A DNA stretch of 24,887 nt. Origin: Myxococcales bacterium. GTDB lineage: Bacteria > Myxococcota_A > UBA9042 > JABWCM01 > BTVJ01. The notes under the pieces are model-generated. The model was not told the DNA's origin. It was given only the letters and a program-made list of their open reading frames with translations, and ran no database searches. Within the stretch, counting starts at the first letter, position 1. Every line of letters starts with the position of its first letter. Positions 147-24,887 of the stretch are shown here, piece by piece. The stretch lies in contig BTVJ01000101.1 of the NCBI GenBank assembly GCA_045863395.1, positions 1-24,887 on the forward strand. Direction: 5' to 3'. The translations under genes were made by a program, and so were the position numbers.

Positions 147-3100
147 GCCATCGACGACGCCGTCGCGGACACCGGCCCGGACACGGTCTCACCGGAGCCG
201 ACGCTCGCCGTGATCCTCCTGCCGCTGGCCCCGACGACGCTCGACGCGCTCGAGGCGACGCTGAGCGCCGACGGCCAGGCCGTCCCGCCTGGAGACGTCG
301 ACTGGTTCTGGACCCTGGACGGCGCCGCCGCAGGCGTCGACGGCCCGAGCGTCGCCGCGGGCCTGACCGTCCACGGCCAGACGTGGACAGTCTACGCACG
401 CCCCAGTGGCGCCACGCAGCCGTGGGCGTCGGTCTCTGTCGAGATCGCCAACTCTCCCCCGGTCCTGTCCGCCGTGACGCTCTCGCCCCCCACGGCGAAC
501 CGATCCGACACCGTGACCTGCGCCTGGGCCGCGCCTACGGACGCGGACGACGACCTGGTCGCCGTAGCCGTAGCGTGGATCCGCATCCGCGCCGGAGTCC
601 AGAAGACGCTACCCGGCTCAGAGGCCACGCGGCCGGCCGCCGACCTCCTCCCCGGAGACGCCATCGTCTGCGAGGCGACGCCCGCAGACCCGACGGACCT
701 GGGCACGCCAGTTCGCTCGGGGCCCGCACAGATCGTCAATCAGGCGCCGGTCGTCGGAACGGCCACGCTCGTGCCCGCCGTCGACCTGGGCGACTACGCG
801 CTCGTCTGCATCTACGACGGCGTCGCCGACCCGGACACCGACCTGGTGACGATCACGTACGCCTGGACGGCCGACGGCGTCCCGATCCCCGGCGCCCAGA
901 CGCTGCTGCTCACAGACCCGCCCGCCAACACGGACGTCCGCTGCGTCGTCACGCCCCACGACCCGTGGACCGCGGGGGCCCCCGTCACCTCGCCCCCCGT
1001 CCACGTGGCCCCGGTCCCGCCGGCCATCGACCTCGTCGACCTGGACGGCGGCTCGTATTGCCAGCCGTTCACCTGCATCATCACGCTGGTCGGCCCCGAG
1101 CCGCCCGACCTGGTTGTCGAGTACCACTGGACCGTGGGCGGCGTCGACGCCGGCGTCGACGGCGACACTCTCCCGGCTCACACCGCGACAGAGGGACAGA
1201 CAGTCCAGTGCCACGCGCGCGCTTCGGACGGCACCGTGGACGCCGCGGGCGCCCTCGTCTATGGCGAGGAGGCCGATTCCGACCTCGCCTTCGCCGCGGA
1301 TCTGCCGCCGTCCTTCGACGAGCCGGCGTCCATCCGCGAGCACGGCCGCTCGGGGGACGTCGCCACCTGCGCATTCTCCGTCAGCGACGACTGCTCCACG
1401 CCGAGCACCGTCATTCTCTGGAGCGTCGACGGCAAGACCCTGCCGTCCGAGCATGGCGTCACGCTGAAGATCCCGACGGCGCCGGCCGGCTCCGACGTCG
1501 CCTGCGCCGTGGTCGCGAGCGACGACACGCAGATCGCCCCGGTCGCGGTGTCCAACGTCCTCGAGCTGGCCGCCACGGACTTCAGCATCATCGGCGACAC
1601 CCTGGGCGCCCTGTTCGGCTTCGACGTGGCCGTCGTCCCAGACCTGGACGGAGACCACTTCGACGAGATCGCCATCGGCGCGCCGGGAGACGGCGCCGCG
1701 GCAGCCGCCCAAGCCGGCGCGCTGTTCCTCGTCGGCGGCCGTGACGACGTGGACCTTCTCGACCTGGCCGGCATCCGCGTCGGCATCGGCGGCCGCGCGA
1801 TCCTCAACGACTCGGGCAGCTACAACCTCACGAAACTCCTCTGCGGGCCGTACACATTCGGTGGAGGCTGCCCCATTCCCGCCGACCCCGGTCAGATCGA
1901 CGCGTACACCAAAGGCCCGGTCGGCGCGGCTCTCGGCCTCAGCGTCGCCTCCCCCGGCGACATCGACGGCGACGGCGTGGCGGACATCATCGTGTCCGCC
2001 CCCTACATGCTCGTCGGCAATGTCTACCGCGGCCGCACCTACGTCCTCTCGGGCGCGACGGCGCCGACCGTGCCGGACGTCCTCGGCAGCGCGGCCCTCG
2101 GCAACCTGGGCTACGTGTTCGACGGAGAGTGTGGGCGGCGCCTCACGGTCGACAAGGCCAAGGGGAGCAACTTCGCGTTGGACGGTGGCAACGGCGATCT
2201 CGCCGGCTTCAAGGTGGCCGCGCTGGGCGACGCCAACGGAGACGGCCTCGGCGACTTCGCCGTCTCTTCGGTCAACAGCGGCAACGTCGACGAGGGGACG
2301 ATCTACGTCGTCTACGGTCGCACGGACGGCGAGCGGGTGACCGGCAGCGACCTCTACACGCGCGGATGCTTCCCGAACGAGCCGGACGGTCCGGGCGCCG
2401 CGGCCGGCGTGGCCGGATTCGCGATGCTCGGCTACGACGCAGGCATCGGCGAGTCGAACTGGGGGCGCTCCATCGCGTCGGCCGGAGACTTCGACGGAGA
2501 CGGCTACGACGACGTCCTGCTCCATGCCCCGGGCCTCGGCGCCCCGCACTCCTACCTGGTGTTCGGCGGGCCGGTCGGAGCGACCGTGGACCTGAAGACC
2601 GCCGCGCCGCCCGCCGCGCTGAAGATCTGGCACGGCGACTTCAAGTACCACATGGGGACGGGCTTCACCGGACGCTTCGCGGGAGGCCTCCCGGCGGGCG
2701 GCGGCGGAGACGTCAACGGCGACGGCTACGACGACGTCGCGTTCCAGGTGGCCGACTTCGATCTGCCGGCAGGGCTGCTCGTCCTCCTCGGCTCGCCCGA
2801 CCGGGACGCCCTCGCCAACCTGGACCAGGCAGCCGACGGGTCCCGGGGCTTCGCCGTCGGTGGCGACACCAACGTCGACACGTTCCTCGGCGACGTCCAG
2901 ATTGTGGGGGACGTCAACGGAGACGGCTACGACGACGTCGCGATGGGCGTGCCGACCGAGAGCGGCGTGGGCCGCACCTACGTCGTCTTCGGGGCAGCGA
3001 CCGACCCGCAGGTGACCTTCAACGACCTGATCGCAGGCGATGGCGGCTTCGTCATCAACGGTATCGAGGCAGGCGAGAAGCTCGGCTGGTCCGTGGCGGG

Positions 3101-5591
3101 CGACGACATTGACGGCGACGGCCTCGCCGACATCATCGTCGGCGCCCCCTACGCCACGGTGAATGGCGTCCCGCGCGCGGGCCGCGTCGTCATCGCTTAT
3201 GGGCGCGACTTCAGCGGCGCAATCGACCAGTATGGGGCCCAGCTCGCGGACACGCTCCTCGGATCGACGGGGCCGGACTCGCTCGTCGGCGGCCAGGGAG
3301 ACGACATCCTCGTCGGCGGCGGCGGCGCGGACGTGCTCTACGGCGGCGCCGGCGACGACATCATCGAGGTGGGCGACGCGGGCTTCCGTCGCGTGCGGGG
3401 CGGCACTGGCGACGACACGCTGCGGCTCGGCGCGAGCATCGCCGCGTTCGACTTCGCGACCGTGGCCCGGCGAGTCGCGGACATCGAGCACATCGAGCTG
3501 CAAGGGCAGTCGCTGATCGTGAGCAGCGTCGGCGTGAACGGGCTCAGCACGACGAGCAACCGGCTCCTCGTCGACGGCGCGAGCGGCGAGGTCACGGCCC
3601 TCGAGGGTGACGCGTGGCTCGGAGACGGGTACGTCGAGAGCGGCGGCCTCACGTACCTGAAGCTCGTCGACGCCGTCACCGAGCTCTGGGTCGACACGCG
3701 CCTCGACACCGCAATCCCCCCGACGGCCAGCGATGTCGCCCTGGACGTCGCCGAGAACTCGCCGACCGGGACGGTGATCGGAGTGGTCCCCGCCACGGAC
3801 CCCGACGGAGACGACGGGAAGCTGACCTGGAGCATCGTCGCCCGCGAGGACGACGGAGCGCTGGAGGTCGGAGTGAGCTCCGGGCAGATCCGGGTCGCCG
3901 ACAGCTCGAAGCTGAACTACGAGCAAGGGCTCCACACGATGACGCTCGCGGTCGCCATCGCCGACGCGGACGGCCTGAAGCGGCAGGTCACCGTCACTGT
4001 CTCGGTGAAGGACGAGAACGAGCCGCCACACTTCCTCTACGCCAACCAGCTATGGAGCACCGAGGAGGGCGGGCAGTCCGACGACGTGATCGGATCGGTC
4101 TCCGCATTCGACGTCGACGCGGGTGAGGCGCTCGCTTTCGGCATCGTCGAGGACCTCGACGGCCTGTTCGAGATTGATGAGGTCACCGGAGCGGTCACGG
4201 TACAGGTGGGGAAGGCACTCGACTTCGAGACGGCGACGCTCCACACGCTGACCCTCTCGGTCACGGACTCCGGCGGGCTGACGGAGGAGTCGACGGTCAC
4301 CATTCAGGTGCTCGACCGCGAAGCCATCGAGAAGCACGTGACGCTGACGGCCACGCTCCGCGACTGGGCGCTGCGAAAGGACAAGGAGGCGAGCGACTTC
4401 GACATCATCAACGACTTCCCGACCACGCCTGGGGGTCTGGCGCTCTTCTGCCTGGAGTGGTACGCCATGGGCGAGTCCGCGCAGCACGAGCTGTGGCCCG
4501 GGTTCCCGTCGGTCGGATTCCCGCCGATCACCATCCCCCCGTTCTCGTTCACCATCAGCTCGGCGGGGACCATCTGCGCCTACATTGGAATCGCGTACGA
4601 CACGGGCCGCTTCAACGCCGACGTGCCGGTCACGATCGACCTGTCGTTCCCCGACGAGATCACGCCGGGGAGCGTAGTCGAGCTGTCGACGAGCTACACA
4701 ATCCCAACCGATGGCAGCGCCATGTGGGGGAACACACCGAAGCTGGAGGTCAAGGGAGGGCTGGAGGCAACGGACGTGTCCATGGTGGCCGAGTACTGTC
4801 ATGGCCCTGGGCTCTCCCAGTGTGACGACCTCGTGAACCAGCCGAACCCGAAGAGCGAGGCCTGGAGTGACAGCTTCAAGCTGAAGCCTGCGAGCTGGAA
4901 CGCGCCGATCTCGGGCGATGGCGCCACCTGGTCCGCGGAGACACCCGAGCCGGTGCATGTCGACACGGCCGACTTCCAGATCCCCTGGGACGAGCTGGTC
5001 TTCTCCCTGCTGAAGACGCTGGGGCTCCCGGCCAACGAGGGGCAGCTCGCGAAGTCGGGGGAGGGTGACGACTTCTCGATGTACGTCGATTACATCGCGT
5101 TCAAGCAGGAGCTGGTCTACATCCTGAAGTCCAAGTGGGAGTTCGACTTGAAGGTCCAAGGGTTTACGGTGGTCGTCGTGCTCGAGGACGAGTCAATCCA
5201 GACGTTTCCCCTCGGCACCATCGGCCAGATAGTGCTCCCGCCTGCCGGGGGCCAGGTCTACGACGACGGGCTGGTCGGAATCTCCATCTCCATCGTGCCG
5301 ACGGCGCACTTCAAGGCCCACCAGTGGTTGGACCAGACCGTCGGGGTGACCACCACCGTCGGCAGCGTCACGCTGACGGCTCTCGACAACGCCACGAACA
5401 AGGTCCTGCTCCAACGCGAAGCGGGCCCGATCTTCGACGACCTGTGCACCATCCAGACGGTGTCCCAGACCGGCGGCGGTCTCGCCATGGGGTGCCTCAC
5501 CGGCAAAGACGACTATGTCTACGAGTTCGACGTGACGGGCTTCCAGACGCCCGTGCTCCATGGCGCCATCGACGTGATGACGGGGAATTAG
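3..5591 (+). CDS. Giant secreted/surface adhesin-like protein (5'-partial): GTTDAG linker, Cys-containing Ig-like repeats, FG-GAP/integrin-alpha-like beta-propeller, RTX-type Ca-binding nonapeptides, two cadherin domains, unknown C-terminal domain
   Basis: Frame is open from base 3, so GTG 72 lies inside the repeat and is not the real start. Ig-like N.PP..V...C...D.D.D...W modules ~200-1570; repeated GD(V/I/F)(N/D)GDG.DD...GAP motifs ~1580-3210; GGQGDDILV-GGGGADVLY-GGAGDDIIE ~3290-3370; cadherin signatures VAENS, ATDPDGD, LNYE, DENEPP, LDFE ~3716-4322. Confidence 0.9.
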   Translation, partial: GTTDAGGTTDAGGTTDAGGTTDAVGTDDTGGTADAGGSTDAGGTPDAGAIDDAVADTGPDTVSPEPTLAVILLPLAPTTLDALEATLSADGQAVPPGDVDWFWTLDGAAAGVDGPSVAAGLTVHGQTWTVYARPSGATQPWASVSVEIANSPPVLSAVTLSPPTANRSDTVTCAWAAPTDADDDLVAVAVAWIRIRAGVQKTLPGSEATRPAADLLPGDAIVCEATPADPTDLGTPVRSGPAQIVNQAPVVGTATLVPAVDLGDYALVCIYDGVADPDTDLVTITYAWTADGVPIPGAQTLLLTDPPANTDVRCVVTPHDPWTAGAPVTSPPVHVAPVPPAIDLVDLDGGSYCQPFTCIITLVGPEPPDLVVEYHWTVGGVDAGVDGDTLPAHTATEGQTVQCHARASDGTVDAAGALVYGEEADSDLAFAADLPPSFDEPASIREHGRSGDVATCAFSVSDDCSTPSTVILWSVDGKTLPSEHGVTLKIPTAPAGSDVACAVVASDDTQIAPVAVSNVLELAATDFSIIGDTLGALFGFDVAVVPDLDGDHFDEIAIGAPGDGAAAAAQAGALFLVGGRDDVDLLDLAGIRVGIGGRAILNDSGSYNLTKLLCGPYTFGGGCPIPADPGQIDAYTKGPVGAALGLSVASPGDIDGDGVADIIVSAPYMLVGNVYRGRTYVLSGATAPTVPDVLGSAALGNLGYVFDGECGRRLTVDKAKGSNFALDGGNGDLAGFKVAALGDANGDGLGDFAVSSVNSGNVDEGTIYVVYGRTDGERVTGSDLYTRGCFPNEPDGPGAAAGVAGFAMLGYDAGIGESNWGRSIASAGDFDGDGYDDVLLHAPGLGAPHSYLVFGGPVGATVDLKTAAPPAALKIWHGDFKYHMGTGFTGRFAGGLPAGGGGDVNGDGYDDVAFQVADFDLPAGLLVLLGSPDRDALANLDQAADGSRGFAVGGDTNVDTFLGDVQIVGDVNGDGYDDVAMGVPTESGVGRTYVVFGAATDPQVTFNDLIAGDGGFVINGIEAGEKLGWSVAGDDIDGDGLADIIVGAPYATVNGVPRAGRVVIAYGRDFSGAIDQYGAQLADTLLGSTGPDSLVGGQGDDILVGGGGADVLYGGAGDDIIEVGDAGFRRVRGGTGDDTLRLGASIAAFDFATVARRVADIEHIELQGQSLIVSSVGVNGLSTTSNRLLVDGASGEVTALEGDAWLGDGYVESGGLTYLKLVDAVTELWVDTRLDTAIPPTASDVALDVAENSPTGTVIGVVPATDPDGDDGKLTWSIVAREDDGALEVGVSSGQIRVADSSKLNYEQGLHTMTLAVAIADADGLKRQVTVTVSVKDENEPPHFLYANQLWSTEEGGQSDDVIGSVSAFDVDAGEALAFGIVEDLDGLFEIDEVTGAVTVQVGKALDFETATLHTLTLSVTDSGGLTEESTVTIQVLDREAIEKHVTLTATLRDWALRKDKEASDFDIINDFPTTPGGLALFCLEWYAMGESAQHELWPGFPSVGFPPITIPPFSFTISSAGTICAYIGIAYDTGRFNADVPVTIDLSFPDEITPGSVVELSTSYTIPTDGSAMWGNTPKLEVKGGLEATDVSMVAEYCHGPGLSQCDDLVNQPNPKSEAWSDSFKLKPASWNAPISGDGATWSAETPEPVHVDTADFQIPWDELVFSLLKTLGLPANEGQLAKSGEGDDFSMYVDYIAFKQELVYILKSKWEFDLKVQGFTVVVVLEDESIQTFPLGTIGQIVLPPAGGQVYDDGLVGISISIVPTAHFKAHQWLDQTVGVTTTVGSVTLTALDNATNKVLLQREAGPIFDDLCTIQTVSQTGGGLAMGCLTGKDDYVYEFDVTGFQTPVLHGAIDVMTGN

Positions 5592-16326: not shown

Positions 16327-19300
16327 TCAGAGTCGGAAGCCGCCGTGCTCCAGCAGATCCGCGGCCTCCTCCGACTCGTCCACGGTCATCCGCCCCAGGG
16401 TGCGGCTCGCCTCCAGGCAGAGCCAGCGGTGGTAAGGCTGGTCGTTGTCGCGAGAGCGCTCGAGGCAACGTCTCAGATCGCGCGCGGCGCGGCGCGGCGA
16501 CCCGCTGTGATGGTGGATCAGCGCGGCGACCCGGTCGCCCAGCCCAGCGAGATCCCGACGCTCGGTGCGCGCCAGCCGCCCGGCCCGGTGCAGCGCCCAC
16601 CGGCGGTCGCGCGCGCTCAGGGTCCCCGTGGCCGCCGCGCCGGCCGCCGCCTCGATGGCGACCCACGTCGCGACGCTCACCTCGTTCGGCGTCAGAGATG
16701 CGCCGAGGGGGTCGGGCCGACCCAGGAGGACGCTGCGCTGTCCGAGGATCTCCTCGAAGCTCGCTCGAGCCAGCCAGATACGCCAGCGCACGAGCGTCAA
16801 CAGGGCGGTCACGCGGCAGGGCGGGACGTCGGCCAGGTCCACCTCGGCGGCCTCAAGACACTGCGCTGCCTCCTCGACCCGGCCACAGGAGGCCAGGATC
16901 CAGACCTCCTGAAGGGCGGCCTCGCGCAGGAGCTGCACGCTGACGTGGACGCGCGCCCTCTCCCGGGCAATTGCGTCCAGAGCCGCCTGGTAGCGTCCTG
17001 TGGTCACGAGCCCGACGATCCGGAACCCGCGAGCGAACTCGGCATCGCGCCCGTCGACCTTGCCTGCCTGCTCGAGGAGCGAGAGGCCTGTCTCCACGCT
17101 CCTCACCGCGCGCACAGGGTCCACGTTGAGCCACAGGAAGCTCCTGGCCTGCCGCATGAGCGCGAGCCCATCGACGTCCTGCCCCTCCGCCGCAAGCCTG
17201 TCGCCCTGGTCCAGGAGCTCCTGGCATTGCCGGATGCGCCGGCCCGAGAGGCGAAACGACAGCGCCTTGCGCACGACCCGGAGAAACAGTGAGCGCACCA
17301 CCGCCTCCTTCGCATCGAGGCGTCGCGCGAGCAGCTCGGCGCGGAGCGAGAGCTCGGCCGCAGGCATCCACCACAGCGGCATCAGCGCTCGCCCTATCTG
17401 GTCGAGACGCCGCACGCGCTCCATGGCGCCCTGGCTCGTCCGACGCAGCGGGAGCAGGCGCTCCGGCACCAGGTCGAGGGCGAGGAGGCGGAGACCCAGC
17501 CACAGGATGACTCCAATCTGCTTCAGCGCCCCGCGCGTGAGCGACAGGTCGAGGAGCGCCAGGCCCTCGGCGCACGCGGAGGCGCCCTCGCGGACACGTC
17601 CGACGGCCGTGAGGCTCTCCCCGAGCTGACCGACCACGCGGAGCAGCGAGGCGCGCCGATCCGGGTGGTCCGCCGAGACGACCTGCCAGCAGCGCAGGGC
17701 GCGGCCAAAGGCGTCGACCGCCTCGTTCGGACGCCCCCCGTACTCGAACAGGGTGCCGATGCGCTCCCAGCAGGCTGCCGATTGGGGAGTTGCGGCGTCC
17801 GGGGCCGTGTCCTCCAGAGTGACCGAGAACAGCTCCGCGGCGCGCACGAACGCGAGCCGCGACTCGGCCTGTGCGGCTGCCAGCGCTGCGTAGCGCCTGC
17901 GGCGCTCCAGGTCTCCCGCTCCGGTCCAGTGGCGGTAGAGCTGCTCGGCGTCCTCGCCCGTGGCCTCCAGCGTCTCGGCGAGTCGCCGGTGCAGCGCCCG
18001 ACTTCGCTCCGGTGAGAGCCGCGCGGAGGCAGCCTCGCCGATTCGCTCGTGGTACAGGCCGACATGGCGCACGGACGTCTCCGGCGCGCGCGTCGTGGCG
18101 ACGAAGCGGAGCGCGGCCAAGTCGGCCAGCGCGTCGTCGAGCTCCGTCGCGCCGAGGCCGCTCGCCGCCCGCAGCGTCGATGTCGAGAGCTCCCCGCCAG
18201 CCGTCACCGTCAGCGCCAGGACCTCCTCCGCGCTGTCGCCCAGCGTCGTGATCATGGCGTCGAGCAACGACTCCACGTTCGGGCTCGTGTCTGCTCCGAC
18301 CTCGACCGTCGCGCCCTCCGCGGACGCAGTGACTCCCTTGGCCGCCGTCGCCCCAGCCGCGAGATACTCGGCGAGACGGCTCGTCAGGAACGGATGCCCG
18401 TCGGTTTGGCGGGCGAGGGCCAGGGCCCCCTCCGGGCTGAGCTTCGTTCCTGCCACGGTGGACAGGAGCTCGGCGGCCTCCTCGGTGCCGAGCCGCCCGA
18501 GCGCGAGCGCCAATCCCCCCTCGCTTCGCATGGAGAAGCGCTCCAGCTTCTGCAGCGCCCGCGCGTCCGTCACGCAGTCGGAGCGAATCAACCCCAACAC
18601 CGCGATGCGGCCGGTCGCGCCCTCGAGCGCCGCCGCGAGGAGGTCCAGGCTGCCGTCGTCCGCCCACTGCAGGTCGTCGAGCACGAGCAGGATCGGGGCG
18701 AGCTCCTGGAAGACGTCGAGAAGCATGGCAAAGCTGTCGATGGCCAGCCGGGCCCGCTCGCGGCCGCGACCAGCCTCCTCCTCTCGGGGCGGACCGGTGA
18801 GCGCCTCGATGGTGGGGAACATCGGCAGCAGCGGCCGCAGGAGTGGCAGCACCTTCGCGCGGCGCTCTGCAGGCCACTCCCGGACTGCCAGCACGACGTC
18901 GTCCACCACGCGGTCGAGGACGAGGTAGGGGACGCGCTCTCTGTCGAAGCACCGGCCCTCGAAGCAGAGGAACCCGCTCTGGCGAGCCCACGGGACGGTC
19001 ATCCTCGCCAGCGTGGTCTTTCCGATGCCGCTCGGACCGCTCACCGTGATGAGCTGCTTTCGCGACGCCAGAGCCCGGGCGAGGGCGCTGCGGATGGCGG
19101 CAGTCTCGCGGGTACGTCCGACGAACACCGATGCGACCGGACGCGCGACGGCGCGCGAGCCCGCCGCCAGGCGACGGACCGCGTCCAGCCCGGGTCGCGC
19201 GGCCGGATCGATGGCCATCAGGCCGCGGCAGAGGGCGGCCCACTCGGCGGGCACCCCCGTCACGTACGACTCCACTCGGGGAGGTGGCTCACGCTGGCGC

Positions 19301-20097
19301 CGCCTCACGATCTCAGCCGGGCTGCCTCGAATCGGGAGCTCACCCGTCAGGAGCTGGAACACGAGGCAACCGAGCGCGTAGAGGTCGGACGCGGGCGTGC
19401 AAGACTCACCAAGACAGCGCTCCGGCGCCATGTAGGGGAGCGTGCCCGACACCACGCCGACCATGCTCGCCGCCAGTGGGTCGGCGATCCGGATGGAGAG
19501 GCCGAAGTCGAGGACGCGCACCTGGCCCGCGACGTCCACCATGACGTTGGACGGCTTGAGGTCGCCGTGGACGATGCCGTGGCTGTGCAGGAACTCGAGC
19601 GCGTCGGCGAGCTGGCCGATGACTGCCTCGAGCGCCTCGAGTTCGCAGGCGACGGGCCCGGGCCTCCGAAGCGGAGGGCCGTCGCAGTCGGAGGCCCGCA
19701 GCACAGACGGGAGCTGCAGGTCGCCCAGCGTGTCGGGGGTGCTGTCCTCCGTGTCGCCCATGTCCTCCGGCAGCAGGAGCTGCACGAGGTCCTGCCCCTG
19801 GATCAGCTCCATGGTGAAGAACCACAGGGCGCCCTCGCGGGCCAGGTCGCGCGGAGTCACGAGGTTCGGGTGCCGCAGCTCTGCGATGACCCGAAACTCC
19901 TGCTTGAAGCGCAGCAGGCGCGCGGGGTCGGCGCTGCGCATGGTCTTCAGCGCCAGATGGGCACCTGTCTCGCGGTCCTCGACCTCGTAGACAGCGCCCA
20001 TGCCGCCGGACCGGAGTGGACGCACGAGCCGATACCGGTCGGTGCCACGAAACGGTGGTCCGGAGTCTGCCGCATCGCGCCAGGTCGAGTCGCTCAT
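16327..20097 (-). CDS. Hanks-type Ser/Thr protein kinase with P-loop (AAA_16/STAND-like) ATPase and helical TPR-like C-terminus
   Basis: SGGMGAVY, ALK, HGDLKPSN, DFG, GTLPYMAPE, SDLYALG; Walker A GPSGIGKT; Walker B LVLDDLQWAD. Confidence 0.93.
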   Translation of the reverse strand: MSDSTWRDAADSGPPFRGTDRYRLVRPLRSGGMGAVYEVEDRETGAHLALKTMRSADPARLLRFKQEFRVIAELRHPNLVTPRDLAREGALWFFTMELIQGQDLVQLLLPEDMGDTEDSTPDTLGDLQLPSVLRASDCDGPPLRRPGPVACELEALEAVIGQLADALEFLHSHGIVHGDLKPSNVMVDVAGQVRVLDFGLSIRIADPLAASMVGVVSGTLPYMAPERCLGESCTPASDLYALGCLVFQLLTGELPIRGSPAEIVRRRQREPPPRVESYVTGVPAEWAALCRGLMAIDPAARPGLDAVRRLAAGSRAVARPVASVFVGRTRETAAIRSALARALASRKQLITVSGPSGIGKTTLARMTVPWARQSGFLCFEGRCFDRERVPYLVLDRVVDDVVLAVREWPAERRAKVLPLLRPLLPMFPTIEALTGPPREEEAGRGRERARLAIDSFAMLLDVFQELAPILLVLDDLQWADDGSLDLLAAALEGATGRIAVLGLIRSDCVTDARALQKLERFSMRSEGGLALALGRLGTEEAAELLSTVAGTKLSPEGALALARQTDGHPFLTSRLAEYLAAGATAAKGVTASAEGATVEVGADTSPNVESLLDAMITTLGDSAEEVLALTVTAGGELSTSTLRAASGLGATELDDALADLAALRFVATTRAPETSVRHVGLYHERIGEAASARLSPERSRALHRRLAETLEATGEDAEQLYRHWTGAGDLERRRRYAALAAAQAESRLAFVRAAELFSVTLEDTAPDAATPQSAACWERIGTLFEYGGRPNEAVDAFGRALRCWQVVSADHPDRRASLLRVVGQLGESLTAVGRVREGASACAEGLALLDLSLTRGALKQIGVILWLGLRLLALDLVPERLLPLRRTSQGAMERVRRLDQIGRALMPLWWMPAAELSLRAELLARRLDAKEAVVRSLFLRVVRKALSFRLSGRRIRQCQELLDQGDRLAAEGQDVDGLALMRQARSFLWLNVDPVRAVRSVETGLSLLEQAGKVDGRDAEFARGFRIVGLVTTGRYQAALDAIARERARVHVSVQLLREAALQEVWILASCGRVEEAAQCLEAAEVDLADVPPCRVTALLTLVRWRIWLARASFEEILGQRSVLLGRPDPLGASLTPNEVSVATWVAIEAAAGAAATGTLSARDRRWALHRAGRLARTERRDLAGLGDRVAALIHHHSGSPRRAARDLRRCLERSRDNDQPYHRWLCLEASRTLGRMTVDESEEAADLLEHGGFRL

Positions 20098-21824
20098 TCA
20101 GCGATGCGTCTGCGTCTCAGGTTGAGGAGCGTCAGGTGCTTCCCGAGCCCCCCCGCAGACACCTGCAGAGCGCGGGCCGTTGCAGCGACGTCCCCGCCGT
20201 TCGCGAGGCTCGCAGTCGCGATCTCCTCCTCCGTGAGCTCCGCAGGGCGCTTGATCCCGAAGTCGCTCAACAGCTTGCCGAGGGTGGTACGTGACAGCCC
20301 GGCTTCGGAGGCCGCCCGTGTCCGGTTGAAGCCCACGGCCTCGAGCTGGCGATACAGGGCCTCGGCGACCGCGGCGCGTATGCGGTCCGCGTGGTCCGCG
20401 TCGCTGCCCTCACCGCGCCGCGTGTGAAGCTCCGCCAGCGCCGTGGGCGGCAGGAGCTTCACCACCGTCTTGTGGGCCAGCCCCAACAGCGCCGTCACCT
20501 CCGCCGTCGCGGCGGAGACCTCGATCAGCGGCTCGGACACGGGTCCCGTGGCCGAGTGACCCACGTCGTCGTCGGGCTCCGCGAAGACGCCCGCCTGCAT
20601 CGTGGCGCGCGCGACGCGCTCGGCGTAGTGCTGCAGCTCCCGCACGTTGCCGGACCAGGAGCGACGCATGAGGCTCGCGAAGAACCGGATGGGGATCGTC
20701 GGCCGCCACTGCCGCGCCCCGCTCCAGAGCCAGGCCAGGTCTGCGTGCCGCTCGCGCAGCCGCCTCAGGAAGCACATGAACAGCTCGGGGACGTCCAGGC
20801 GCCGCAGGTCGAGCGCAGGCACGCGAAGACGATGCCCGGCGAGCCGGTGGTACAGATCCTCCCGCAGTCGCCCGGCGGTCACCTCGGTGATCGGGTCCCT
20901 GTTCGTGGCGGCAATGAGCCGCGCGTCACACTGACGCGCGCGGTGCCCGCCCACCGCAACGACCTGGCCGTCCTGCAGGACCCGGAGGAGCTTCGGCTGT
21001 ACGGACGGCGGGAGCTCGCCGAGCTCGTCCAGGAACAGGCTCCCCCCGTGCGCCGCAAGGAACAGCCCAGGCTCGTCATGATCCGCGCCCGTGAAGGCGC
21101 CCTTACGGTGCCCGAAGAAGAGGCTCTCAGCGAGCCGCTCCGGGAGCGCCCCGCAGTTGACGGGCACGAACGGCCCGCGGGCACGCGCACCGGACGCGTG
21201 GATGGCACGGGCGACGAGCTCCTTGCCGGTCCCCGTCGGTCCTGTGAGCAACGTCGGGCCATCGAACCCCGCCACGGCGACCACGTCATCGCGGAGCTGC
21301 CAGAGGAGCTCGCTCTCCCCCACGAGACCCAGGCGGTCGGCGCCAGGCCGCAGGGTCGCCACTTCCAGCGCGACGAGGGTGCGGTCCCCGAAGGCGAGGC
21401 ACGACCCGGGCGCCACCCGCGCGGGACCGGTGAGCACCTCGACGGCCTCGTCCTGCCGGCGCGCCGGATCCACGACGCTGACGAGCCGCTTGGCGTCCGG
21501 GTCAGGCGTCACCTCGAAGCACTGGTCGCGGACGAGCCAGCGGATGCGCGCCTGACGACGGCTGACGGCCGGGTCTTCGATGGAGAGCTGCCGCTGATCG
21601 CCGGCGGGCGCGCGGAACAACGGCTCGAGACGGCCCACGAGCAGCGCGGCCCGCTCGTCGGTGGGGAAGGCCTCCGGCTCGGTCAGGTCGCCGATGCGGT
21701 CCAGGTCGACGTGGTACAGGATGCGGAGGCGAGGGAACGGACGCCCATCCCGTCTTCCGGAGGTCGACGACGACCAGCCATCGCTGATGCCGTCGAGCGT
21801 GTGTGTCTCGGTGTGGGTCGCCAT
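20094..21824 (-). CDS. sigma54-dependent enhancer-binding protein with FHA-like N-terminus and two C-terminal HTH-like motifs
   Basis: VGR...DPAVSRRQ (FHA-like); GPTGTGKE, ESLFFGHRKGAFTGA, LFLDE, REDLYHRL, WSGNVREL; HTH-like FNRTRAASEAGLSRTTL and GDVAATARALQVS; ATGA overlap with the kinase; start ATG 21824 (alternative TTG 21845). Confidence 0.93.
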   Translation of the reverse strand: MATHTETHTLDGISDGWSSSTSGRRDGRPFPRLRILYHVDLDRIGDLTEPEAFPTDERAALLVGRLEPLFRAPAGDQRQLSIEDPAVSRRQARIRWLVRDQCFEVTPDPDAKRLVSVVDPARRQDEAVEVLTGPARVAPGSCLAFGDRTLVALEVATLRPGADRLGLVGESELLWQLRDDVVAVAGFDGPTLLTGPTGTGKELVARAIHASGARARGPFVPVNCGALPERLAESLFFGHRKGAFTGADHDEPGLFLAAHGGSLFLDELGELPPSVQPKLLRVLQDGQVVAVGGHRARQCDARLIAATNRDPITEVTAGRLREDLYHRLAGHRLRVPALDLRRLDVPELFMCFLRRLRERHADLAWLWSGARQWRPTIPIRFFASLMRRSWSGNVRELQHYAERVARATMQAGVFAEPDDDVGHSATGPVSEPLIEVSAATAEVTALLGLAHKTVVKLLPPTALAELHTRRGEGSDADHADRIRAAVAEALYRQLEAVGFNRTRAASEAGLSRTTLGKLLSDFGIKRPAELTEEEIATASLANGGDVAATARALQVSAGGLGKHLTLLNLRRRRIAE

Positions 21825-21864
21825 GGGTTGGGATCGGCCAGTCAACGAGTCCCGGCTCGTGCTT

Positions 21865-22152
21865 CTACGTCAGGATGCACAGTAGTGATGACCTAGGGTG
21901 CCACGCCGCGCCACCGGGCGTCAAGGGTCCGGCGGCGCACTGCTGCGGGAGCTGCGCGTCGGGCGGCGGCTCCTCTCCGTCGTCCGCGTCGAGGAGGCCG
22001 CGTCGGCACAGCGAGGTGTGAACCCGCTCGAAGATGGCTGCGACCAGGGTCGTGATGTCCTCGTTGCTCGGCGGAGCGCACCGCACGAAGCTGGCCCCCG
22101 AGCCGTCCGGGCTCTCCGCGTAGGCCCCGTCGGGCGCGAGGATGTGCAGGTG
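21865..22152 (-). pseudogene. IS91/ISCR-family (HUH, Y2) transposase remnant, downstream piece
   Basis: HLHILAPDGAY...F....P.....L...I..RV...L.RRGLL resembles the IS91/ISCR H.H.L..DG.Y region; the frame ends before any catalytic Tyr region. Confidence 0.75.
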
Positions 22153-22691
22153 AACCATCAAACGGCACCACTCAGAATGCCGCGTGTTTGGTCGTGATTC
22201 GCTATCCGTTTCATCCGCTCCATGGACGCGACCTTCAGCGGGTGACGAGCCGGCGTAGCCCTCCCGGTGTTGTGGCGGTGGTCGACCCGAAGGGACGTTG
22301 GCTCACCGTGCCCGAGTGGATGTTTGGCGCGGAAGCGGAGCTGCTCACTGTCACGGCGGAGCCGGTGGTCGATACCCGCGCGCTGGTGCGGGTCGCGGAG
22401 CTGCTCGGCATGCCAGCCGGCGGCGAAGGTGACGTTGCGGGTAACGTGTCCCAAGGACCCAAGCCTGGAGGACACGAACATGCAGCTCGAACTCGATCTG
22501 GGGCGACCGGTGGGCGCGAAGGAAGGGGAGCTGGCGTTGCCGGCGCCCACTCGGTTGGAGGTGATCGCACGGATGGCGGAGGCGATTCTCGCCGTGGCTG
22601 CGAGGCTCGACGCAGAGTCGGACGGGGCGGAGGCCCTGGTACGTCCCACGGCGGTGAGCCGGACGGCAGCGGAGGAGGAGGTGCGCGATGA
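22152..22691 (+). CDS. Element-associated small protein with YPFHPL.G motif (DUF5372 / Y4bD-like, from recall); no good start in the integrated state
   Basis: TTQNAACLVVIRYPFHPLHG...VPEWM...ALVRVAELL; frame is open back through the left junction; only TTG 22188 or GTG without an evident RBS. Confidence 0.65.
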   Translation, partial: EPSNGTTQNAACLVVIRYPFHPLHGRDLQRVTSRRSPPGVVAVVDPKGRWLTVPEWMFGAEAELLTVTAEPVVDTRALVRVAELLGMPAGGEGDVAGNVSQGPKPGGHEHAARTRSGATGGREGRGAGVAGAHSVGGDRTDGGGDSRRGCEARRRVGRGGGPGTSHGGEPDGSGGGGAR

Positions 22692-22695
22692 GTGA
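22480..22695 (+). CDS. Small hypothetical protein (71 aa) translationally coupled to the recombinase
   Basis: GGAGG at 22467-22471, ATG at 22480; MQLELDL...EEEVRDE; stop overlaps recombinase ATG 22688. Confidence 0.7.
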   Translation: MQLELDLGRPVGAKEGELALPAPTRLEVIARMAEAILAVAARLDAESDGAEALVRPTAVSRTAAEEEVRDE

Positions 22696-24815
22696 GGACC
22701 GTCGTACTTCCAAGATCACGCCGGAGCACTTGTCGCGTCGTGCCATCGTGTACGTGCGGCAGTCCTCCGAGAGGCAGGTCCAGCACAACACGGAGAGCCA
22801 ACGTCTCCAGTATGCGCTCGGGGATCGCGCCTGATCGTTGGGCTGGCACCAGGTCGAGGTCGTCGATAGCGACCTGGGCGCGAGCGCGGGGCTGGGCGCC
22901 GCTCGCCGCGCTGGATTCGACCGCGTCCTGGCGGCCGTCGCCCGCGGCGAGGTCGAGATCGTGCTGGCCAGGGAGGCTTCTCGGCTCTCCCGGACAGACA
23001 AGGACTTCTGCCGTCTGTTGGAGCTGTGCCAGGTGTTTGGTACCCATCCTGGGCGATGCCGATCAGGTGTACGATCCGGCGCTCATGGACGACCAGCTCA
23101 TCCTCGGGATCAAGGGAACCCTGAGCGTCGTGGAGCTTCGGGTGATGCGGATGCGGCTCGTCCAGGGGATGCGCAGCAAGGCGGCACGCGGTGAGCTGTA
23201 CACGCTGCTGCCACCGGGCTACGAGTTGGACGGGGACCGGCGGCCGGTGATGGATCCGAACGAGCGGGTCCGCAACGCCATCGCCGACGTGTTCGCCGTC
23301 TTCCGAAAGACGTGGAGTGCACGACAGACGCTGCTGCTGTTTCACGGGGAGGATCGTCTTGTCCCGGTCCGCAAGCACTCGGGAAACCGTGCGACCCTCG
23401 TGTGGCAGCTCCCGACCCAGAGCTACTTGACCGACATGCTCTCGAATCCCTGGTATGCTGGTGCCTATGTTTGGGGACGCCGCAGGACGGAGCTCAGCTA
23501 TCGCGACGGCGTCCTCGTTCGTCGGACGGGTCGCAAGCGGCGCCCCGAGGAATGCGACGTGCTGCTGCGCGACCACCACGACGGATACATTACCTGGGAG
23601 CAGTTCGAGGAGCACAGGCGCATCATGAGCCGAAACAGCCGTGTCATCGGCGGGAGCGATGCGTCGCCCGTGAGGCGAGGCGGCGGCCTGCTGGTCGGCC
23701 TGCTGCGATGTGGGCGATGCGGACGCATGCTCCACGTCCACTACTGGCGTCGGTCCGGGAGCGCCGGCGAGTATCTATGCGGTGGCACGTATCAGTCCGG
23801 CGGGGAGTATTGCCTCAGCTTCGCAGGACGCGGAGTCGACCAGGCGTTCTCTGCCGAGATCCTTCGCGTCATCTCCCCCTGGAGTCTGGCGGCGAGCGAG
23901 GCGGCTCTCGAGCGACGAGCCGAAGACGACGATGCTCGACGTCGGGCGGTCGAACTGCATCTGCGCCAGGCGGAGTACGAGGCCCAACGATCCTTCGAGC
24001 AGTACAACGAGGCGGATCCACGGAACCGGCTCGTCGCCGCGGAGCTCGAGCGACGCTGGAACGTCAAGCTCGAAGAGCTGGGCCGCATCCGGTCGAGTCT
24101 TGAGGCGCTCCCCACGCGACGAGTCGGGGACACTCCCGAAGTGCAGAAGACCATCGCATGGCTGGGGGAGCACTTCGACCACGTCTGGACCAGCGACACG
24201 TGTACGCCCGAGCTGCGCAAGCAGAACGTCCGGACGCTCATCGAGGAAGTCATCGCCAACTACGACGATGACACGCGACATCTACGATTCACGATCCACT
24301 GGAAGGGCGGAGCACACAGCCACTTGGACGTGACGAAGCCGGCAGCGGGGAAGGCGCAGGCGACCTCGGATGGCGACCTGGACGTCATCGCCAAGCTCGC
24401 GGTGCGCTATGGCGACGACGACATCGCGCACGTCCTGACTCGCCTTGGACGCAAGACCGGCAAGGGGTTGCGCTGGACCCGAGAGCGAGTCAAGTCTGCC
24501 CGGTCTCGCGCCGGCATCGCTGGCCGAACCAAGACGCTGGAGGATCCCGACCTGCTGAACATGAACGCAGCCGCGCGCTACTGCGGTGTCAGCGACACCA
24601 CCATCCGGCGCCTCGTGGAGGCGAGGCTCGTGGCGAATCACCAGACAGTCCCGTGGGCTCCCTGGGAGGTCCCCCGAGCCGACCTGGATGCCGAGCCCGT
24701 ACAGCGCATCGTGCGGCACCTCAGAAGCACCGGCCGCCTCGTCCTGGACCTGGGCTGTTCGACGTCTCAGATGGAACTTCTCGTGGAGTTTCAAGGAGGT
24801 AGCAATGACAGGTAG
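22688..24815 (+). pseudogene. Large serine recombinase (resolvase catalytic domain, recombinase domain, Zn ribbon, coiled coil, C-terminal HTH), disrupted
   Basis: ATG 22688 reads MSEDRRTSKITPEHLSRRAIVYVRQSS...QY; in-frame TGA at 22832-22834; ASRLSR; extra C in 23043-23045 shifts into ILGDADQVYDP; LRCGRCG..YLC..YC; NMNAAARYCGVSDTTIRRLV; ~708 aa if repaired. Confidence 0.9.
24794..24807 (+). promoter_or_regulatory. Outward-facing Shine-Dalgarno plus ATG at the element's right end
   Basis: AGGAGGT (24794-24800), agca, ATG (24805-24807), overlapping the last recombinase codons. Confidence 0.65.
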
Positions 24816-24820
24816 TCTGC

Positions 24821-24886
24821 GTGCAGGTCTAACGTCGCGGCGTCGGCCGCTCGCTGCACGACCACGACGGAGCCGGGGTGGCAACG
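24821..24886 (-). pseudogene. IS91/ISCR-family transposase remnant, upstream piece (runs off the window)
   Basis: Minus frame RCHPGSVVVVQRAADAATLDLH aligns with the family pattern G.V..IQRFGSALNLN.H that precedes the HUH motif. Confidence 0.7.
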
Positions 24887-24887
24887 G

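Follow-up and report, generated by a model that had tools for sequence, protein, structure and literature searches.

Several mobile elements that travel as circles carry, at the joint of their abutted ends, signals that act when the element is free. Tn4451/Tn4453 (recombinase TnpX) and Tn5397 (TndX) are clostridial transposons moved by large serine recombinases (LSRs). Elements of the Tn4451/TnpX type, which have a GA dinucleotide at their ends and target, are excised as circles and re-inserted at a 2-bp core without target duplication; the joint of the circle builds the tnpX promoter, which ties production of the enzyme to the free state of the element. Circle junction promoters are also found in insertion sequences (ISs), including IS911 and other IS3 members, IS30, IS21, IS492 and IS110/IS1111, in the latter for the expression of bridge/seeker RNA; these systems rely on DDE or DEDD transposases and bring together a -35 box from one end and a -10 box from the other. 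In other cases a gene spans the attachment site attP, as do the integrase gene of SSV1-type archaeal viruses, which is split on integration, and the int gene of Myxococcus phage Mx8. The prophage-like element phiRv1 of Mycobacterium tuberculosis (~10 kb) inserts in the repeat REP13E12 with a serine integrase and encodes a small direction-setting protein, a recombination directionality factor (RDF), whose gene is complete in the integrated state. IS607 encodes a small recombinase whose DNA-binding domain is N-terminal and whose catalytic domain is C-terminal, and it often carries tnpB. Here we analyze an element in a 24,887-bp stretch of DNA (hereafter the window), which is the whole of contig C101 (BTVJ01000101.1) of an 8.8-Mb Myxococcales genome. 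We consider it probable that this element is a relic of a family in which an open reading frame, ORF-A, is split across attP and completed on excision, the best explanation that we can offer for its structure.

The element occupies positions 22160/62 to 24830/32 of the window, measures 2671 bp and has the 2-bp core that a serine recombinase would predict. Two comparisons fix its ends. First, the same genome contains an uninterrupted paralogous site at the end of another contig (G000:C26:95178-95287), which matches the left flank exactly as far as 22161 and the right flank exactly from 24831 on, and the only letters common to attL, attR and this empty site are AA. Second, in a comparison over positions 21700-24887 with contigs from four public metagenome runs, all of different studies, each run (4/4) contained one contig that joins 22159 to 24831 and skips 2671 bases, with two letters at the joint fitting both sides; one run additionally has a 2672-base variant of this joint. 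The two arms of the window attP form an imperfect inverted repeat in which 12 of the 22 inner nucleotides match. The 2-bp core, the lack of target duplication and the inverted-repeat arms are those of LSR elements. The segment 22160-24832 is a decayed 2.67-kb IS-like element that was moved by an LSR. Its insertion, by crossover at the 2-bp AA core, interrupted a probable IS91/ISCR-like transposase gene within the codons for the HUH motif. That gene reads on the minus strand, with one half in each flank (..AATL / MVHLHILAPDGAY..): the C-terminal fragment opens with ..VHLHILAPDGAY.. exactly at the insertion point, and the uninterrupted paralogue retains the HUH motif as ..LMVHLHILAPDG.. The interrupted target has a VHLHIL motif, and its C-terminal fragment matches the NCBIfam model ISCR_clade_Ia at E 7.3e-4, under the cut-off of that model; it has no Pfam match.

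An earlier note on this DNA, made from its letters alone, had placed the junction at a GTG shared by both ends or, alternatively, at an 8-bp core (GTGCAGGT). Neither is the crossover, because both the empty paralogue and the contig joints of the four runs give the AA core, and the target gene as restored in that note (..LDLHIL..) loses the H-x-H of the HUH motif that the paralogue keeps. Both ends shift by the same 10 bases and therefore the frame match remains unchanged with ends defined from copies and an empty site, as that note had proposed to do.

The observation on which the note was built is readily seen in the sequence. The right end carries AGGAGG(T) (24794-24800), agca and an ATG (24805-24807), which point outward and overlap the recombinase stop codon TAG at 24813-15. 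At the left end, the frame that encodes YPFHPL is open through the end of the element, for 49 codons upstream, and has no start backed by a ribosome-binding site (RBS): TTG 22188 and GTG 22194 are its only start-like codons before YPFHPL, neither with a Shine-Dalgarno sequence (SD) upstream. From ATG 24805 there are 26 bases to the core, the second base of which opens a codon at 22161, in the codon phase of ORF-A. The in-frame join thus stands, with a fused N-terminus that reads MTGSLRAGLNGTTQNAAC-LVVIRYPFHPL in the joined translation and not MTGSLREPSNG.. as first given. The stop codon of ORF-A (TGA 22689-91) overlaps the recombinase ATG as ATGA.

These features suggest the following mechanism. 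Elements of the family carry ORF-A, ORF-B (a second small gene, described below) and the recombinase in one direction. In an integrated element, the far right end holds the RBS, the ATG and the first ~9 codons of ORF-A, in or just outside the P arm of attP, and the remainder of ORF-A begins at the left end, within the P' arm. Recombination between attL and attR would produce a circle (or a head-to-tail tandem) whose attP joins the parts into a translatable ORF-A, and integration would split the gene again. ORF-A would in this way act as a sensor of the topological state of the element.

A frame match in one copy has a one-in-three chance of being coincidental, and these odds, stated in the earlier note, stand for the window by itself; the layout, in addition, recurs across a family. 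A first word-index search with ORF-A found no relatives; 154 representatives were then gathered at E ≤ 0.001. With the motif [VI]xYPFHP[LWH][HY]G, 138 relatives were confirmed in reference genomes and 80 loci were kept. The family is present in 17 of 401 genomes of the phylum of the window, where 14 surrounding stretches were examined. Clustering of the ORF-A domains at 70% identity gives 30 clusters, with both ends readable in about 20 according to our tally. Copies of the element within one genome measure 2.6-2.7 kb, and those of L078-L080 are 99.9% identical. The recombinase has 3507 relatives at E ≤ 1e-10 among 8000 candidates scored; in L049, a locus of a Bradyrhizobium isolate, its frame reads 698 amino acids.

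The left ends of these elements encode a leader that has no start. They were resolved in 78 of 81 cases, and all 78 leaders are free of stops. Between the core and the Y codon of YPFHPL, 64 of them lack any ATG, GTG or TTG in frame; the other 14 have scattered Val/Leu codons, with no start-like codon conserved in position. The leader varies among lineages from 10 to 16 codons, always whole codons, and in-frame (H/Q)(N/K)(T/A) codons are found 11 nt after the core across the family. The single out-of-frame case (L019) has a broken recombinase. Over the nine codons that follow the P' arm (44 unique sequences), entropy by codon position is 0.65/0.52/1.22, to be compared with 0.29/0.28/1.18 in the domain and with 0.27/0.51/0.37 in the P' arm, which has no third-position bias. 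Such a pattern of variation indicates that the leader is under coding constraint though start-less.

A leader of this kind could in principle be entered from outside: ORF-A would be read from the left flank, fused to the antisense of the target gene, and the right SD and ATG would drive outward expression into the other flank. Both flank frames are indeed open for tens of codons in GC-rich targets, gene callers assign flank-coded N-termini to most of the family proteins that we inspected, and the target is conserved, hence the flanks are similar. Nevertheless, in 64 of the 78 left flanks no ATG lies in frame between the element and the first stop, and in four lineages (L013 and L018; L108 and L113 by eye) flank and core together form a TGA or TAA exactly at the junction, which therefore prevents any read-in from outside and which the circle removes. 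Since the targets differ between lineages (Y2 and Y1 transposases; a host gene in locus L087), there is no conserved flank-coded product either, and we regard expression through the flanks as very unlikely.

At the right end, what is conserved is a translation start. The 3' end of the recombinase gene was located in 57 loci, and the P arm could be recognized in 50 of them (46 by pattern, 4 by eye). The ATG lies 26 nt before the core, as in the window, in 46 of these 50 arms, and the remaining four (L007, L013, L015, L075) have retained one in frame at codon 5. An SD-like match is located 4-10 nt upstream in 35 of 43 scored right ends, mostly AAGGAG or AGGAGG at 6 nt. Such conservation might have other reasons, such as the recombinase C-terminus or an extended att site, in which case the fusion would be an architectural by-product and ORF-A would be translated from a non-canonical start in its leader. 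The main lineage gives some weight to this idea, with an SD and ATG that overlap the recombinase tail (..ENQGDDNARY..), as do the codon-5 ATG, located inside the symmetric half-site GGTAT..TG, the GTG or TTG codons of 14 of the 78 leaders and the fact that no junction DNA was found. Yet the SD (scored) and the ATG persist in five lineages in which the recombinase stops before the SD (L012, L018, L028, L049, L064), and the same persistence is seen by eye in L106 and L108. Moreover, in the inverted repeat formed by the attP arms 12-15 of the 22 inner bases match, against 3-6 of 16 for the outer SD/ATG bases; half-site recognition does not explain the retention of the SD and first ATG, because both lie outside the symmetric part. 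The leaders, too, vary as coding sequence does, without a positionally conserved start, and one database protein carries the fused N-terminus (see below). All this makes a by-product unlikely.

The cuts in relatives were set by geometry, at 26 bases from the right ATG and, on the left, 13 bases before the in-frame (H/Q)(N/K)T codons. The fusion is therefore in frame by construction and independent support is needed, which the interrupted genes can provide. Joining the flanks at the inferred cuts restored a single open frame containing both target motifs (HTWG-like and H-x-H) in 29 of 37 loci; a displacement of the cuts by 1 or 2 bases, by comparison, did so in only 1 of 37. This two-motif test, which is blind to 3-base shifts, was used instead of an earlier and more lenient restoration test that did not discriminate shifted cuts. 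The core dinucleotides are identical at both cuts in 29 of the 37 loci (TG 20, GG 5, TA 3, AG 1), and the junctions derived by eye in L013, L015, L018, L107, L108, L109 and L113 are all in frame. The core varies between lineages: it is AA in the window, TG, TA, GG or AG in relatives and, by eye, CA in L107, and is not the GA of Tn4451/TnpX-type elements. In eight of the 37 loci (L015, L047, L054, L064, L069, L077, L081, L085) the left and right cores differ at one or both positions, which is unexpected for a serine recombinase, an enzyme that needs matching cores.

The joined form itself was sought in proteins and DNA. One of 269 family proteins, P0192, begins with MPGIMSEGS-HIHAHNTLSAENTEVQVFYPFHPL, which is exactly the predicted fused N-terminus, right-arm peptide first; its source is a single contig, 808 bp long, in an ENA assembly. 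The recombinase 3' end was directly upstream of ORF-A in none of the 80 genome loci, no contigs with overlapping ends were found, and neither 4 multi-copy genomes nor 401 genomes of one class contained the joined motif (one mismatch allowed). No go-back joint was present in the contigs of the four public runs; a dead copy would not be expected to give one, and rare forms are lost in contigs. A single match to the joined motif in a metagenome scan (L087) proved to be an attL in a host gene with a P-arm-like flank, not a circle. In that locus (L087:93-123) the element sits in an ordinary host gene for a periplasmic-looking protein, and the insertion looks like one into a pseudo-site, because the flank (..GGTGAGGGTTCTG) resembles the right arm of the element itself. 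The idea that an excised circle assembles a gene can count on comparative evidence from the whole family and on one fused database protein; circle reads, transcripts and junction peptides were not seen.

As for the function of ORF-A, complex prediction with the intact recombinase of locus L076 and ORF-A residues 1-100 yielded a score of 0.73, the best control being 0.00. This mark is reached by 116 of 157 solved complexes and by 2 of 215 mismatched pairs, counts that hold only roughly because custom alignments were used. At least 75% of contacts are common to the three runs, and the predicted local distance difference test score (pLDDT) of the partner is at least 68. The predicted interface involves, on the recombinase, the CxxC of the zinc ribbon (339-345), residues 393-406 and residues 477-544 after the coiled coil and, on ORF-A, residues 21-24, 52, 55, 66-83, 85-87 and 89-90. 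The model supports binding of ORF-A to the recombinase, which would take place at the zinc-ribbon and post-coiled-coil region. Known RDFs act at the zinc ribbon and the segment after the coiled coil of their integrases, and the predicted contacts would suit an ordinary excision factor serving the integrated state, with the junction ORF used only in tandem or dimer copies, from one of which P0192 could stem. It would, however, be self-defeating for an excision factor to be untranslatable in the integrated state, no tandem copy was found among the 80 genome loci, and the genomes scanned for the joined motif lack it; we rate this as the least probable of the alternatives. We rather propose that ORF-A, made while the element is free, would bias the recombinase toward re-integration, block re-excision or otherwise control direction. 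A directionality or integration cofactor had been suggested in the earlier note; the predicted complex lends it indirect support, and the direction in which it would act remains our inference. That ORF-A binds the recombinase and biases its direction is a tentative proposal, which we would not yet favor over its negation. More speculative still, and in our opinion rather doubtful, is a general version in which a widespread family of minimal elements, parasitizing HUH codons in the transposase genes of other transposons, would use an ORF-A made only in the circle and bound at the base of the recombinase coiled coil to turn this enzyme to integration, opposite to phage RDFs, as a self-limiting cut-and-paste strategy.

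A number of observations weigh against a gene completed by excision. The recombinase has its own SD and therefore does not depend on ORF-A. The SD is missing in 8 of the 43 scored right ends. In locus L110, whose ends are ambiguous, the first ATG is lost, and a GTG at codon 5 is preceded by GGAGG at 4 nt. L112 and L114 represent a divergent subfamily with undefined ends, whose right end is readable in L112 only, and there the recombinase stop closes the P-arm frame. At least 17 of 42 representative ORF-A relatives inspected have an ATG 1-7 codons before YPFHPL, which means that the gene may be undivided in parts of the wider family. Nor do the loci count as independent trials, given that they owe their fixed attP geometry to a shared ancestor. 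P0192 is divergent beyond residue ~77, and this protein may derive from a chimeric contig or from a tandem copy. Neither a circle junction nor a tandem one was found in the DNA examined, namely the genome loci, the genome and metagenome scans and the contigs of the four runs. Finally, no sigma-70-like site was detected in 21900-24887, in a scan that covers the integrated sequence and not the promoter types of the host, and no promoter could be placed by eye. In the same divergent subfamily, the ORF-A leader reads ..PVHSAHV.., and L112 has a further outward SD and ATG beyond.

The window copy is a fixed fossil. Its recombinase gene survives in three pieces that match, in the order expected of an LSR, Resolvase (PF00239, E 2.7e-8), Recombinase (PF07508, E 3.7e-11) and Zn_ribbon_recom (PF13408, E 5.4e-7) and are 49-68% identical to relatives of ~700 amino acids, most of which, in the precomputed Pfam annotations inspected, have all three domains, a few lacking one. 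The N-terminal position of the catalytic domain, the length of ~700 amino acids and the absence of tnpB differ from IS607. The frame is not intact: an in-frame TGA (22832-34) replaces an Arg of the relatives, and one extra base near 23046 causes a frameshift. No variant or indel was found at either lesion in the contigs of the four public runs. Because the recombinase is broken, the switch in the window is a relic and is no longer operative. These lesions and ORF-B were not part of the earlier note, whose observation was largely right and whose junction coordinates were wrong; its interpretation is plausible, with family-wide support that is comparative, not molecular.

The predicted structure of ORF-A has a pLDDT above 90 for residues ~10-85, with four strands followed by helices and then a disordered tail. 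It appears to be a small beta-barrel distantly resembling DUF5372 (Pfam PF17342, cut-off 25 bits), the window ORF-A scoring 14.1 bits (E 0.051), that of L018 20.4 bits (E 5e-4) and the relative P0321 26.4 bits, above the cut-off. Foldseek gave nothing at E ≤ 0.001 with this model, and VIA-align retrieved generic SH3/KOW-like barrels only (Z ≤ 5.6), with no functional lead; DUF5372 is not mentioned in the titles and abstract openings of the literature searched. Translation of the ORF-A tail is doubtful. The third-position signal of the ORF-A frame fades there and in several lineages ORF-A stops 75-79 residues after the Y; the tail may therefore be untranslated, and we abandoned the view that it is certainly coding. 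ORF-B overlaps this tail, between the ORF-A domain and the recombinase, with GGAGGA 7 nt 5' of its ATG and a helical-looking core of ~50-60 amino acids. It is conserved in an alignment of 18 other lineages, on which grounds we rejected the possibility of a spurious frame; these come from a motif-based pick of 18 out of 32 representatives that did not include the window, to whose ORF-B the match was made by eye. ORF-B has no Pfam or NCBIfam match, and the Atlas holds hypothetical clusters only. Coordinates of all these features are listed in the table.

Features of the element and its insertion site in the window (coordinates of the whole 24,887-bp stretch)
Feature	Position	Strand	Basis or remarks
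Target gene, C-terminal fragment, probable HUH (IS91/ISCR-like) transposase	21865..22159	-	ORF list; weak NCBIfam match
attL, left 2-bp core AA	22160..22161		Empty-site paralogue; contig joints in 4/4 runs
ORF-A body, start-less	22161..22691	+	Leader 22161-22202; domain from Y codon 22203 to ~22430; R/G-rich tail
P' arm of attP, left element end	22162..22187	+	Also ORF-A leader codons (..GTTQNA..)
ORF-B, small gene (M.QL.L...vP....LMA.AI.AV)	22480..22695	+	Overlaps ORF-A tail in another frame
Large serine recombinase pseudogene	22688..24815	+	ATG 22688; stop TAG 24813-15; three pieces
Shine-Dalgarno AGGAGG	24794..24799	+	5 nt 5' of outward ATG
P arm of attP	24805..24830	+	Starts with ATG 24805-07; first 8 2/3 codons of the junction ORF (MTGSLRAG-)
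attR, right 2-bp core AA	24831..24832		Empty-site paralogue; contig joints in 4/4 runs
Interrupted target gene, upstream fragment	24833..24887	-	Continues past contig end; ORF list, empty-site comparison

Across the family, insertion takes place around the HUH-motif codons of the transposases of other transposons (L007-L086, L106-L113; in the window, 22135-22161 and 24831-24887). These targets are of the IS91 type in most loci, with Zn_Tnp_IS91 and Y2_Tnp in the flanking ORFs of L038 and L076 (Y2_Tnp at E 1e-56 to 1e-58), and of the IS200 type in L064 and L085, whose flanking ORFs match Y1_Tnp. This insertion habit amounts to a hyperparasitism of mobile elements. One contig (L015:115-318 and 3082-3303) holds two different ORF-A genes ~3 kb apart, probably two elements of different lineages inserted side by side. 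The host genome of the window contains no second copy of ORF-A in our search; on a 2.7-kb contig it has a second, divergent LSR (G000:C184:293-2233, minus strand), 31-55% identical over pieces. Next to the element, also on the minus strand, are a 1256-amino-acid ORF (16327-20097), whose N-terminus looks like a Ser/Thr protein kinase and is followed by a long repeat-like region, and a 583-amino-acid ORF (20094-21845) that resembles a sigma-54-type activator, both identified by eye; they overlap by stop and start and are apparently unrelated to the element.

If the proposed mechanism is correct, it adds a translational form of circle-junction switch to the transcriptional ones, and the topology of an element decides whether an accessory protein exists. 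In line with the earlier note, which knew of no description, we found none of the element or of its split gene in the titles and abstract openings of the literature searched, where this large family of compact serine-recombinase elements therefore appears to be undescribed. By inserting into catalytic-motif codons, these mobile elements disable transposons of the IS91 and IS200 types, including a family that mobilizes resistance genes. Serine integrases are also tools for genome engineering, and a small direction-setting partner, should ORF-A be one, together with att sites of ~50 bp, is directly testable.

The closest parallels are Tn4451 and Tn5397, with which the element shares a large serine recombinase, a 2-bp core and, in our proposal, the use of the circle joint as an expression switch. 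By contrast, the joint would here build the RBS, the start and the first codons of an accessory gene and not a promoter, and the element is far smaller (2.6-2.7 kb), free of cargo and targeted to transposase genes. As proposed for this family, abutted IS ends create an expression signal that the integrated copy lacks, but IS circles gain a transcriptional signal, whereas here the recombinase is a serine enzyme and a coding sequence is split across attP. Like phiRv1, the element has a serine integrase, a repeated element as target and a small accessory protein, for which a role in direction is our proposal; unlike in phiRv1, ORF-A is split when integrated, and it is not known to be related in sequence to the phiRv1 RDF. 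Finally, as in SSV1 and Mx8, the att site lies inside a coding sequence that integration breaks or alters and excision would restore. In those viruses the gene concerned is that of the tyrosine recombinase itself; here it is an accessory gene, split nine codons after its start.

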